From: Escherichia coli
Lineage (GTDB): Bacteria; Pseudomonadota; Gammaproteobacteria; Enterobacterales; Enterobacteriaceae
Reading direction: 5' to 3' (one strand)
NCBI RefSeq assembly: GCF_003790525.1
Contig: NZ_CP033635.1
DNA length: 64,000 nucleotides
Shown here: positions 56,502-59,945 of the stretch, in pieces
Layout: the number at the start of each line of letters is the position of its first letter
Position numbering within the stretch: the stretch's first letter is position 1
Translations under genes and position numbers: made by a program
Notes under the pieces: generated by a model
The model's input: the letters and a program-made list of their open reading frames with translations, nothing else
Told to the model about the DNA's origin: nothing
The model's database searches: none

Positions 56502-56601
56502 CATTTCTCTTATCTCCTCTCTTCATCTTTTGGATCTCTCTCGCAAATTTACCTGCTAATAATCCGTTCTAATCACTGCCTAAAGATCGCAGGAGATAAA
56601 G

Positions 56602-58698
56602 ATGGAAAAGCACGGAGCTGAATTGCTTTTACAGCGGATGTTAGGAAATACCACCGCTACTTTCAGGGAAGGGCAATGGGAAGCCATAGATGCAGTGGTT
56701 AATCAGCGGCGAAAACTGCTGGTTGTACAGCGCACCGGCTGGGGGAAAAGTGCCGTGTACTTCATCGCCAGTAAAATCTTCCGCGATCGCGGCGCTGGCA
56801 CGACAATTATCATCTCTCCTTTGCTTGCCCTGATGCGTAACCAGGTTGCCGCCGCTGAACGGTTAGGTATTACGGCTGAAACGTTGAATTCTACAAACAG
56901 GGAAGAATGGCAGCGCATTAGCGATAAGTTGCTGCAAGGTGAGGTCGATTGCTTGCTGGTTTCCCCGGAACGTTTGGCAAACCAGGACTTTATCGAAACG
57001 GTTTTATATCCTATAGCCGATCGTATTGGCTTGCTTGTGGTCGACGAGGCGCACTGCATCTCTGATTGGGGCCACGATTTTCGCCCGGATTACCGACGTA
57101 TATTAGATATTTTGCGCCAACTGCCTGCGAATACCCCTGTTCTGGGTACAACCGCGACAGCGAATAACCGTGTTGTTGAGGATATCCGTCAGCAATTGGG
57201 TGACATTGTGATTCAGCGTGGAACGCTGGCTCGCGAAAGTTTGGCGCTTGATGCCTTAGTCTTAGGAGAACAGTCATCCCGTCTGGCATGGTTAGCAACG
57301 GTTATCCCTCAGTTTTCCAAATCGGGAATTGTTTATACCCTGACGACTCGCGATGCTGAACTTGTCGCCGAGTGGTTAAGGAAAAATGGTATCAGTGCAT
57401 TTGCTTACTACAGCGGCGTGACTTGTGAAGGCGCGGAAGATTCTAATACTGCCAGGGAATATCTGGAGCAGGCACTGCTGGCAAATAAAATCAAAGTGCT
57501 GGTCGCGACGACGGCATTAGGTATGGGGTTTGATAAACCTGATTTAGGTTTCGTCATTCATTATCAGATGCCGGGGTCTATTGTCGGTTACTACCAACAG
57601 GTGGGGCGTGCCGGGCGTGCTATAGATTCCGCAGTTGGCATATTGCTTTGTGGTGGTGAAGACCGCGCTATTCATCAATTCTTCCGTGAAAGCGCCTTTC
57701 CTGCGGAGGCGCAAATTCATGAAATACTCAACGTACTTAGCGAGAATGACGGTCTTACCCTACGAGGCATTGAACAACGGACGAATCTTCGTTATGGGCA
57801 AATAGAAAAAGCACTGAAATTATTGGTAGCGGAAAATCCATCGCCTGTGGTGTATACCGAGAAATTATGGCGCAGAACTATCGTCAGTTTTTCTCCTGAT
57901 CATGAACGAATTAACCATTTGATGAATCAGAGAAAAAGTGAACTGGCAGACGTTGAAAGCTATATCACGACCAAGGAGTGCAAAATGCAATTTCTGCGCC
58001 GTGCACTCGATGAGCCAAGTGCCGAACGTTGTGGTAAATGTAGCAGTTGTCTTCAGCATCCGTTATTGTCGCCCGACATTGATAGCGGCTTACTCCATGC
58101 GGCAAATTTATTTATTAAACACGCTGACCTGCCGTTAAATCTCAATAAACAGATGGCAGCTGGGGCTTTTACTCAATACGGATTTAAAGGGAACTTGCCT
58201 GCGGGTTTACAAGGATCTACGGGGCGAATCCTTTCTCGTTGGGGAGATTCCGGGTGGGGAAAGCAGGTAGCACAGGAGAAAAAAACGGGGCGCTTAAGTG
58301 ATGAGCTGGTAGAAGCATGTGCGGAAATGGTTTGCCAACGCTGGAATCCGCATCCTGAACCAACCTGGGTATGCTGCGTTCCTTCATTAAGGCACCTCGA
58401 CCTGGTTCCTGATTTTGCCCGGCGACTGGCGGCGAAACTTGGCTTACCTTTTATTGATGCCATTGAAAAAGTCGTGGACAATCCACCGCAGAAAATGCAG
58501 CAAAACCGTTTTCACCAGTGTCAAAATCTCGACGGGGCGTTTGTGATTATCCCTCCTTTGATGCCAGGTCCGGCGTTGCTGGTTGACGATATCGTGGATT
58601 CTGCATGGACGCTGACAGTTCTGACAGCACTGTTACGCCAGGCAGGTTGCCCGACGGTTTATCCTCTTGCCCTTGCGTCTACCTCGGTAAAAAATTGA
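56602..58698 (+). CDS. RecQ-family SF2 DNA helicase with a C-terminal phosphoribosyltransferase-like motif; candidate PsyrT/RqlH-like toxin or defence effector
   Basis: 698 aa; Walker A GWGKS, RecQ-type motif II VVDEAHCISDWGHDFRPDY, helicase C-terminal motifs (QQVGRAGR); C-terminal LLVDDIVDSAWT resembles a PRPP-binding loop. Absent from the K-12 gntU-yhgN junction as I recall it. Confidence 0.8.
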   Translation: MEKHGAELLLQRMLGNTTATFREGQWEAIDAVVNQRRKLLVVQRTGWGKSAVYFIASKIFRDRGAGTTIIISPLLALMRNQVAAAERLGITAETLNSTNREEWQRISDKLLQGEVDCLLVSPERLANQDFIETVLYPIADRIGLLVVDEAHCISDWGHDFRPDYRRILDILRQLPANTPVLGTTATANNRVVEDIRQQLGDIVIQRGTLARESLALDALVLGEQSSRLAWLATVIPQFSKSGIVYTLTTRDAELVAEWLRKNGISAFAYYSGVTCEGAEDSNTAREYLEQALLANKIKVLVATTALGMGFDKPDLGFVIHYQMPGSIVGYYQQVGRAGRAIDSAVGILLCGGEDRAIHQFFRESAFPAEAQIHEILNVLSENDGLTLRGIEQRTNLRYGQIEKALKLLVAENPSPVVYTEKLWRRTIVSFSPDHERINHLMNQRKSELADVESYITTKECKMQFLRRALDEPSAERCGKCSSCLQHPLLSPDIDSGLLHAANLFIKHADLPLNLNKQMAAGAFTQYGFKGNLPAGLQGSTGRILSRWGDSGWGKQVAQEKKTGRLSDELVEACAEMVCQRWNPHPEPTWVCCVPSLRHLDLVPDFARRLAAKLGLPFIDAIEKVVDNPPQKMQQNRFHQCQNLDGAFVIIPPLMPGPALLVDDIVDSAWTLTVLTALLRQAGCPTVYPLALASTSVKN

Positions 58699-59900
58699 TG
58701 AATCTTTCAGCCAATGCACAAGCGACCCTCCTGCTAACCAGCGATTTTTCTCGCGCGGCGGCGAGTGAGTATAAACCTCTTAGTAATAGTGAATGGGGGA
58801 AGTTTGCATTATGGCTGAAGCACCAACGTATCAGTCCCGCCGATCTTCTGGTGCCGCAACCGCAAGAGAAACTTACAGGCTGGAGCGATCCGCGTATTTC
58901 TCAGGAGCGTATTCTTGGCTTGCTGGCGCGTGGTCATAGTTTGGCGTTGGCGGTAGATAAGTGGCAACGCGCCGGTTTATGGATCTTAACCCGCGGAGAT
59001 GCCGATTATCCCGTTCGCTTGAAAAACCGATTGCGAACGGATGCACCTCCCGTTTTATTTGGCTGCGGGAATAAAGCATTACTGCAAGCGGAAGGTATGG
59101 CGATTGTTGGCTCGCGAGATGCTCCGACTGCCGATTTGCGCTATACCCAACAACTGGCAGCGAAACTGGCCCAACAGGGGATTTGCGTTATCTCTGGTGG
59201 TGCGCGAGGTATTGATGAATGTGCAATGGCGTCGGCACTGGAGGCCGGGGGAACTGCCGTTGGCGTATTAGCTGATAGCTTGTTAAAAACGAGTACGTTA
59301 GTGAAATGGCGTGAAGGGCTTATAGCAGGCAACCTGGTGTTGATTTCGCCGTTTTACCCAGAGGTACGTTTCACCGTCGGCAATGCGATGGCGCGAAATA
59401 AATATATTTATTGCCTTGCTGAAAGCGCAATGGTTGTACGTGCGGGAATGACCGGTGGAACGATAACCGGGGCGATGGAGGCATTAAAACATCAGTGGCT
59501 GCCTGTGCAGGTTAAACCAAATCAGGATATGCAATCAGCCAATTCACGATTAGTAGAAAATGGGGCGTCATGGAGTACTGAACAGGCTGAGAATGTGACG
59601 TTCAGACTGCCAGACGTTACTGGGCTGATGTATGACAAAGCACTCCGTAACGCTCAACCAGAATTGTTTTCGCTGCACGAAGATGACGCAAATTACGCAG
59701 TGATGCCCTCGCATACCCCTGTCGATTTTTATCAACTTTTTGTGGCGGAACTGGCGATCCTTGCAAAGGAATCGATAAGTATTGAAAGGCTGGCGTCTTG
59801 TACTGGTTTAACCATCGAACAAATTAGTGTGTGGCTGAACCGCGCAGAAGAAGAGGGAAGGGTTATCCGATTGGGCGAAGGTCATTATCAGTTCAGGTAA
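58698..59900 (+). CDS. DprA/Smf-like protein (Rossmann-like DNA-processing fold); candidate PsyrA/ShosA-like antitoxin partner
   Basis: Start ATG overlaps the helicase stop (TGATG). DprA motifs VGSRDAPT...ISGGARGIDECAMASALEAGG...YPEVRF...AMARNKYI...TGGT. Confidence 0.8.
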   Translation: MNLSANAQATLLLTSDFSRAAASEYKPLSNSEWGKFALWLKHQRISPADLLVPQPQEKLTGWSDPRISQERILGLLARGHSLALAVDKWQRAGLWILTRGDADYPVRLKNRLRTDAPPVLFGCGNKALLQAEGMAIVGSRDAPTADLRYTQQLAAKLAQQGICVISGGARGIDECAMASALEAGGTAVGVLADSLLKTSTLVKWREGLIAGNLVLISPFYPEVRFTVGNAMARNKYIYCLAESAMVVRAGMTGGTITGAMEALKHQWLPVQVKPNQDMQSANSRLVENGASWSTEQAENVTFRLPDVTGLMYDKALRNAQPELFSLHEDDANYAVMPSHTPVDFYQLFVAELAILAKESISIERLASCTGLTIEQISVWLNRAEEEGRVIRLGEGHYQFR

Positions 59901-59903
59901 TAA

Positions 59904-59939
59904 AACAGGTGCCGCGTCTGGTTGTGTGCAGCACCTGTT
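59904..59939. terminator. Bidirectional hairpin (AACAGGTGC/GCACCTGTT) between the DprA-like gene and convergent yhgN
   Basis: 9-bp perfect inverted repeat filling the 45-bp gap; T-rich flanks on both strands. Confidence 0.6.
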
Positions 59940-59945
59940 TGAACC

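Follow-up and report, generated by a model that had tools for sequence, protein, structure and literature searches.

The closest described relative of the gene pair considered here is the rqlHI operon of the extraintestinal pathogenic Escherichia coli (ExPEC) strain F11, studied by Russell and Mulvey (PLoS Pathog 2015, PMC4670107). In F11, rqlH and rqlI form an operon. RqlH acting alone provokes the SOS response, filamentation, and mutagenesis, and RqlI (EcF11_3933, numbered 1-400) constrains it. The toxicity of RqlH is lost upon deletion of residues 509-690 and in the D663A and DIVD663EVME mutants, and RqlI co-immunoprecipitates with full-length RqlH, not with RqlH 1-509. Deletion of rqlI lowers fitness in animal infection models, a defect rescued by deletion of rqlH. 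Where both genes occur, rqlH always lies 5' of rqlI, and in most Gram-positive bacteria RqlH stands alone (PMC4670107). Here, we analyze a pair of this kind in a 64,000-nucleotide stretch of E. coli DNA (assembly GCF_003790525.1, contig NZ_CP033635.1; hereafter the window), where it occupies a two-gene islet between gntU and yhgN. Taken with its defense role, the pair is very probably the same operon, the chromosomal rqlHI of E. coli, also known as PsyrTA, a two-protein toxin-antitoxin module.

Under the name PsyrTA, 'also called RqlHI', the module appears among the phage-resistance systems of Millman et al. (bioRxiv 10.1101/2022.05.11.491447), who describe it as a toxin containing a phosphoribosyltransferase (PRTase) domain with a DprA-like antitoxin, report that a psyrA deletion was not transformable, and cite Sberro et al. 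2013 for it. Its prevalence per E. coli phylogroup has been given by Wu et al. (bioRxiv 10.1101/2022.08.21.504612). A second relative, ShosTA, has in common with RqlHI a DprA-like antitoxin and a PRTase toxin that binds phosphoribosyl pyrophosphate (PRPP). PRPP binding is essential for ShosT toxicity, with RqlHI cited as a parallel, and the ShosTA phenotype combines filamentation with DNA damage (PMC11961720, PMC12961424). The two differ in that ShosT lacks a helicase, whereas RqlH carries a helicase module of 500 amino acids. A third relative, RqlH of Mycobacterium smegmatis, likewise joins a RecQ-like helicase to a PRTase-like domain at its C-terminus and has been described as a bona fide 3'-5' helicase (PMC3378886); unlike the E. 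coli protein, it stands alone in a housekeeping context, without an RqlI partner (PMC4670107). Actinobacterial RqlH homologues share about 40% identity with the window protein over their whole length.

Earlier publications already cover the two genes, how their domains are arranged, how they behave as toxin and antitoxin, and their inclusion among defense systems, with a match in species and residue numbers alike. Since PADLOC and DefenseFinder flag RqlHI/PsyrTA automatically, its identification carries little weight as a discovery. The by-products of the analysis are a clean account of where the islet is inserted and which alleles exist there, and the recognition that the RefSeq product names, 'RecQ family ATP-dependent DNA helicase' and 'DNA-processing protein DprA', mask the identity of the module.

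Two co-oriented open reading frames (ORFs) on the + strand lie between gntU (55122-56462, +) and yhgN (59946-60539, -). Their parts are as follows.

56602-58698, + strand: rqlH (psyrT), encoding the 698-amino-acid toxin, a RecQ-family superfamily 2 helicase fused to a C-terminal PRTase domain
56668-57621, + strand: helicase core of RqlH (residues 23-340), with Walker A GWGKS (K49), DEAH at 148-151, and Helicase_C
57979-58050, + strand: four-cysteine cluster of RqlH (C460, C477, C480, C483), RecQ zinc-binding-like, nearly invariant in a 10-sequence alignment
58126-58695, + strand: C-terminal PRTase domain of RqlH (residues 509-698), the published toxic part and the part needed for RqlI binding (PMC4670107)
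58573-58617, + strand: PRPP-binding loop of RqlH (residues 658-672), VLLVDDIVDSAWTLT, with D663 invariant
58698-59900, + strand: rqlI (psyrA), encoding the 400-amino-acid antitoxin, translationally coupled to rqlH via a TGATG overlap
58962-59576, + strand: DprA-like Rossmann (DNA_processg_A / SLOG) domain of RqlI (residues 89-293; PF02481, E 5.5e-51; PF18306, E 1.4e-10)

The overlap consists of one common base, with the rqlH stop codon TGA at 58696-58698 and the rqlI start codon ATG at 58698-58700. Both proteins match the PADLOC hidden Markov models (HMMs) of the PsyrTA components (PDLC03928, PDLC03927) over their full length, as a PRTase toxin and a DprA-like antitoxin. RqlH scores 1058 bits against PsyrT, end to end (profile positions 5-687 of 689), and RqlI scores 669.7 bits against PsyrA, with residues 1-400 falling on profile positions 1-397 of 398. 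Because of these full-length matches, and of the Pfam and NCBIfam domain matches, membership in the RqlHI/PsyrTA family appears all but certain. We connect the pair to the studied F11 protein because DIVD falls at residue 663 and RqlI has 400 amino acids, as in PMC4670107. Judged by residue numbering and by the 97-100% identity among E. coli copies, the likeness to F11, the same species, would also take in the gene order, the overlap, a PRTase domain running from about residue 509 to the end, and the DprA-like region of RqlI.

Other families fit the two proteins less well. The helicase part of RqlH matches Pfam DEAD (1.9e-25) and Helicase_C (4.2e-13), and weakly RecQ_Zn_bind (E 0.0014), and its core motifs are invariant in the 10-sequence alignment. 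RqlH reaches the NCBIfam recQ_fam subfamily (254.3 against a cut-off of 219.8), but canonical RecQ was rejected: the TIGR01389 equivalog gives 298.5 against 640.2 and PRK11057 gives 226.9 against 1015, with the match restricted to the helicase core. DpdF, the helicase of the Dpd 7-deazaguanine DNA modification system, has a RecQ-like core in common with RqlH, and PADLOC DpdF models reach at most 310 bits on residues 9-376. Membership in DpdF was rejected as well, with the NCBIfam DpdF model at 151.4 against a cut-off of 550, no further dpd genes nearby, and the PsyrT model scoring more than three times higher. As for RqlI, canonical DprA/Smf was discarded (TIGR00732, 103.2 against a cut-off of 191.15; PRK10736, 81 against 495), and the PF18306 match corresponds to SLOG cluster 4. 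The ShosA HMM matches RqlI over residues 85-266 only, at 92.6 bits, about sevenfold below the 669.7 bits on PsyrA. The pair was also excluded from ShosTA: its toxin is not a stand-alone PRTase, and the top match of its antitoxin is PsyrA, not ShosA.

A first-pass annotation, made from the sequence alone, had described a gntU-yhgN islet of two ORFs of 698 and about 400 amino acids joined by a TGATG overlap, all of which are present, and had cited motifs that we find as well, GWGKS at residue 46, DEAH at 148, and a PRPP-like loop (LLVDDIVDSAWT) whose DIVD is at 663. Its proposal of a PsyrTA/RqlHI-type module is borne out by the full-length PADLOC matches, and its setting apart of the pair from an ordinary RecQ with a canonical DprA agrees with how widely the NCBIfam equivalog cut-offs are missed. 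The further suggestion that the locus combines PsyrTA with ShosTA did not hold up, since the helicase-PRTase fusion already defines RqlH/PsyrT in the literature (PMC4670107; Millman et al.) and no ShosT match was found. The PsyrT HMM itself covers the PRTase domain (the C-terminal domain alone scores 245.5 bits against it), and the fusion is therefore a property of the family rather than a novelty of this locus. The PADLOC ShosT models match neither RqlH nor its C-terminal 198 amino acids, even at E up to 1.

The PRTase domain was examined with full-length homologues of 39-71% identity, drawn from plasmids (E. coli IncF, Nostoc, Acinetobacter, Sinorhizobium, two haloarchaea, Arthrobacter, and Tsukamurella) and from Silvania. 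In the resulting 10-sequence alignment, D663, W669, and T672 are invariant and D662 is nearly so; the loop of the window protein, with DIVD at residue 663, reads VDDIVDS. A profile built from the C-terminal 204 residues finds PRPP synthetases (E 2.1e-5), hypoxanthine-guanine PRTase (1.7e-3), and PurF (0.037) in the PDB, and the weak NCBIfam matches of the domain are all to PRPP-binding enzymes or GntX/ComF. An AlphaFold model of the C-terminal segment, made from the homologue alignment, has a mean predicted local distance difference test score (pLDDT) of 92.7 and a predicted template modeling score (pTM) of 0.90. Foldseek comparison of that model with the PDB returns exclusively type I PRTases and the ComF protein of Helicobacter pylori, the latter with the top template modeling (TM) score, 0.52. 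On the predicted structure, the RqlH C-terminus is a type I PRTase-fold domain with an intact PRPP loop.

We consider an abortive-infection role to be, most likely, the biological function of RqlHI. If the window pair behaves like its F11 orthologue, the PRTase-dependent genotoxicity of RqlH would be held back by direct binding of RqlI, and the RqlH-RqlI complex would be inert in uninfected cells. It is conceivable that phage single-stranded DNA or replication intermediates occupy the helicase or sequester the DprA-like protein; alternatively, antitoxin synthesis could be lost upon phage infection. Either event would unmask the PRTase domain, which might then use PRPP to harm nucleotide or DNA metabolism, and host and phage replication would stop together, as in abortive infection. 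Counted in favor of a defense role are RqlHI homologues inside two defense operons. One pair, 60% identical, is nested in a type I restriction-modification (RM) operon, in the order hsdM-hsdS-rqlH-rqlI-hsdR, on a conjugative E. coli IncFIA/FIC plasmid (L003 2694-12773), and another, 49% identical, separates pglX from pglZ in a BREX-1 operon, beside a DUF262 gene, on an Acinetobacter plasmid (L089 435-10091). On a Nostoc plasmid, an rqlHI pair adjoins parAB.

Several points weigh against the reading of the pair as a toxin-antitoxin module of phage defense. Anti-phage activity has been reported for a cloned PsyrTA system rather than for this chromosomal E. coli allele, and in the natural isolate NILS69 neither deletion of PsyrTA nor its expression in K-12 revealed detectable protection from the phages that were tried (bioRxiv 10.1101/2024.12.20.629700). 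The literature examined holds no report of catalytic activity for the RqlH PRTase domain. Single-sequence searches with that domain are marginal, both for Pfam Pribosyltran (E 0.014) and for an adenine PRTase found by phmmer in the PDB (E 0.075), and its Foldseek TM-scores lie at a modest 0.4-0.5, which is due to an extra subdomain made up of the first ~90 residues of the segment. A consensus scan for sigma-70-like promoters found none on the + strand of the leader between gntU and rqlH (56463-56601). Finally, the helicase-PRTase protein is not intrinsically a toxin everywhere, given that haloarchaeal and actinobacterial RqlH homologues without a DprA-like partner sit among housekeeping genes. 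Our confidence in the whole statement is high, yet below that in family membership, because we infer defense for this allele and because the one test of a native E. coli system was negative.

Among the other explanations, the one that survives best, though we think it unlikely, is a beneficial housekeeping complex of RqlH and RqlI for DNA maintenance or repair, the toxicity of RqlH being a side effect of an unbalanced complex. Russell and Mulvey proposed that the two proteins cooperate in acting on bacterial DNA, and their rqlI deletion strain was less fit in animals; the rescue of that strain by rqlH deletion, however, means that no positive function of the pair has been demonstrated (PMC4670107). 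The helicase activity described for mycobacterial RqlH (PMC3378886) would suit a repair enzyme, as would the commonness of RqlH-only genomes in Gram-positive bacteria (PMC4670107), the housekeeping contexts of such homologues, and the lack of phage defense by native PsyrTA in NILS69 (10.1101/2024.12.20.629700). A repair complex is harder to square with a pair that is absent from ~70% of E. coli genomes, whose rqlH is a pseudogene in O157:H7, whose paired homologues lie within RM and BREX operons, and one version of which, as PsyrTA, is reported to provide phage resistance (Millman et al., 10.1101/2022.05.11.491447).

Somewhat less probable again is a purely selfish addiction module that persists through killing or selection upon its loss and brings no immune or physiological benefit to the host. 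Neutralization of the toxin by a co-transcribed partner (PMC4670107), the failure to transform a psyrA deletion (10.1101/2022.05.11.491447), the occurrence of RqlHI homologues on plasmids, and the undetected defense in NILS69 (10.1101/2024.12.20.629700) would all be expected of such a module. Yet the window pair sits in the chromosome, flanked by core genes, where there is no mobile element for it to stabilize, and many lineages readily do without it or carry it in decayed form. Purifying selection over core-genome-scale divergence (dN/dS 0.06-0.25) and the defense-island-type contexts of paired homologues elsewhere also speak against addiction alone. That the genes are ordinary RecQ and DprA paralogues serving recombination or natural competence is highly improbable, for although the RefSeq product names and the top TM-score of ComF for the C-terminal domain point that way, the NCBIfam equivalog cut-offs are missed widely, the HMMs for PsyrT and PsyrA give a far closer fit, and the pair is accessory within E. 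coli.

The remaining features of the islet lie at its two ends.

56463-56601, + strand: left intergenic leader of the islet, with the post-gntU hairpin and the Shine-Dalgarno sequence AGGAGA
56474-56501, + strand: left hairpin, 12 bp, AATTACTGCGAG-CTTG-CTCGCAGTAATT, followed by the T-rich tail CATTTCTCTT
59903-59940, folding on both strands: right hairpin, between the convergent rqlI and yhgN

The Shine-Dalgarno sequence stands 7 nt 5' of the rqlH ATG. The left hairpin (free energy, dG, -16.6 kcal/mol; z -5.0) is likely the gntU terminator. The right hairpin (dG -21.7 on the + and -24.3 on the - strand; z -3.1 and -5.3) has no T-run on the + strand and is thus better described as a strong structure separating convergent genes than as a typical rqlI terminator. 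Both of the strong flanking hairpins named in the first-pass annotation are therefore real, with bounds of 56474-56501 and 59903-59940, although the right one does not qualify as a standard terminator. The insertion of about 3.4 kb that it proposed is indeed extra with respect to empty sites, but its bounds are 56463-59945, not 56502-59945: everything from the gntU stop to the yhgN stop is unlike the empty allele, such that 3483 bp replace 56 bp. The segment has a G+C content of 49.2%, compared with 51.9% for the window. It holds only the two ORFs, and its junctions fall exactly at the two stop codons. As had been noted from the sequence, there is no integrase or insertion sequence (IS); we likewise found no transposase, terminal repeats, or target-site duplication in the islet or at its boundaries. 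An integrase- or transposase-borne genomic island was rejected on this account, as the segment carries no recombinase gene, terminal repeats, or duplication, and a 56-bp spacer is swapped out.

To follow the islet across the species, a 4.6-kb query spanning the locus was compared with 5426 complete E. coli genomes, 5424 of which matched. The islet is present at the same chromosomal site, with the whole query covered, in 1641 of the 5426. The top match, chicken isolate SC516, is 100% identical over the 4.6 kb compared, and other ExPEC/B2-type strains, such as Nissle (L002, 97% nucleotide identity), are annotated with the same architecture at this site. The other genomes match in the flanks only (24% of the query), with gntU followed directly by yhgN, in keeping with the K-12-type gene order given in the first-pass annotation; the pair is absent there and a 56-bp spacer takes its place. 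In one such genome, K_EC180 (L001), the two stop codons are 56 bp apart and the spacer has its own hairpin. A comparison of this spacer with the islet ends for a deletion scar or duplication found chance 7-12-mers only.

We compared the window with three carriers, the Nissle-type EcN_Sk, TUM14771, and one O157:H7 strain. Across these, rqlH and rqlI are 96-99% identical and the flanking gntU and yhgN 97-99%, in a mosaic pattern, which indicates that divergence of the islet is about on a par with that of the surrounding core genome. Pairwise dN/dS between strains is 0.06-0.17 for rqlH and 0.13-0.25 for rqlI, and by this measure both genes are under purifying selection.

Two allelic states stand out among these carriers. 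The ~40 nt 5' of the rqlH start (within 56540-56601), including the Shine-Dalgarno context, exist as two alleles, one in the window and O157:H7 and the other in EcN_Sk and TUM14771, so that the window and Nissle-type alleles differ in the 40 nt ahead of rqlH. The leader is 84% identical between the allele groups, compared with 97-99% for the adjoining genes, and the two versions may represent different expression settings. In O157:H7 strain MD2019EC2705C4 (L006), rqlH is a pseudogene and rqlI is intact. The lesions are a 1-bp deletion and a 29-bp tandem duplication in the PRTase-domain region (window equivalents 57117 and 58392). A single unbroken match to the duplication junction is found in roughly 250 complete genomes, an approximate figure with an upper bound of 367: a 99-nt junction query was covered to at least 80% in 367 genomes, a count inflated by two-piece alignments, and ~250 derives from evenly spaced rows of the matches. 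A dead toxin beside an intact antitoxin is a typical pattern of toxin-antitoxin decay.

Beyond E. coli, a scan for YhgN in one genome per species yielded 80 Enterobacteriaceae loci, most of which have a yhgN-gntU gap of 38-430 bp. The K-12-type spacer is found in three Escherichia representatives and a related hairpin in a Citrobacter, and thus the short spacer is probably ancestral. Silvania hatchlandensis carries an rqlHI pair at the same gntU-yhgN junction (L035 6637-9902), with a homologous left (post-gntU) hairpin and a conserved start region. Its RqlH and RqlI are 71% and 61% identical in amino acids to those of the window, compared with 94-95% for the flanking proteins, so divergence is far greater in the cassette than around it. 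No full-length homologue was found in the phage collection, where matches were to the helicase core only, and nothing therefore points to a phage origin. The simplest reading of the islet is an old presence/absence cassette that has been spread or lost by homologous recombination in its conserved flanks; a recombinase-based mechanism of movement has no support.

We tentatively extend this reading, as a possibility we put somewhat below an even chance, to the gntU-yhgN junction as a recombinase-free cassette-exchange site conserved across Enterobacteriaceae, at which small toxin-antitoxin or defense modules would be swapped by homologous recombination in the core genes on either side; RqlHI in E. 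coli and Silvania, the Fic/VbhT-like pairs, and the NadS-type pair described below would be examples. Module turnover would be ongoing within E. coli, because there are two alleles upstream of rqlH and a toxin-dead, antitoxin-intact allele in many O157:H7-type genomes. Other cargo occupies the junction at loci L048, L050, L085, L014, L023, L016, L012, L032, L036, L041, and L084. Kosakonia sacchari and an Enterobacter encode a Fic/VbhT-like protein with a small ORF upstream, and another Enterobacter has a NadS-family helix-turn-helix protein with a 109-amino-acid partner. A TIGR00266 protein and a metallophosphoesterase are found in Superficieibacter, a 148-amino-acid protein without a family match in several genera, and an OmpA-like beta-barrel protein in a Buttiauxella.

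Three minor observations concern annotation. RefSeq (PGAP) places the start of the DprA-like gene at ATG 58605, giving 431 amino acids and a 94-nt overlap with rqlH, and does likewise at the Nissle and O157:H7 loci and a further one (L002, L006, L007); this start is probably too far upstream, because the PsyrA profile and the published RqlI (1-400) fit a start at 58698. Two PADLOC models labeled 'DpdF' strongly match the PRTase C-terminus of RqlH (58474-58695, residues 625-698), namely PDLC02869 (74 positions), at 175-178 bits, and PDLC02866 (255 positions); both models seem to derive from RqlH/PsyrT fragments, and mis-calls could result. In the empty-site E. coli O121 strain GTVSS-020 (L008), gntU is annotated as frameshifted.

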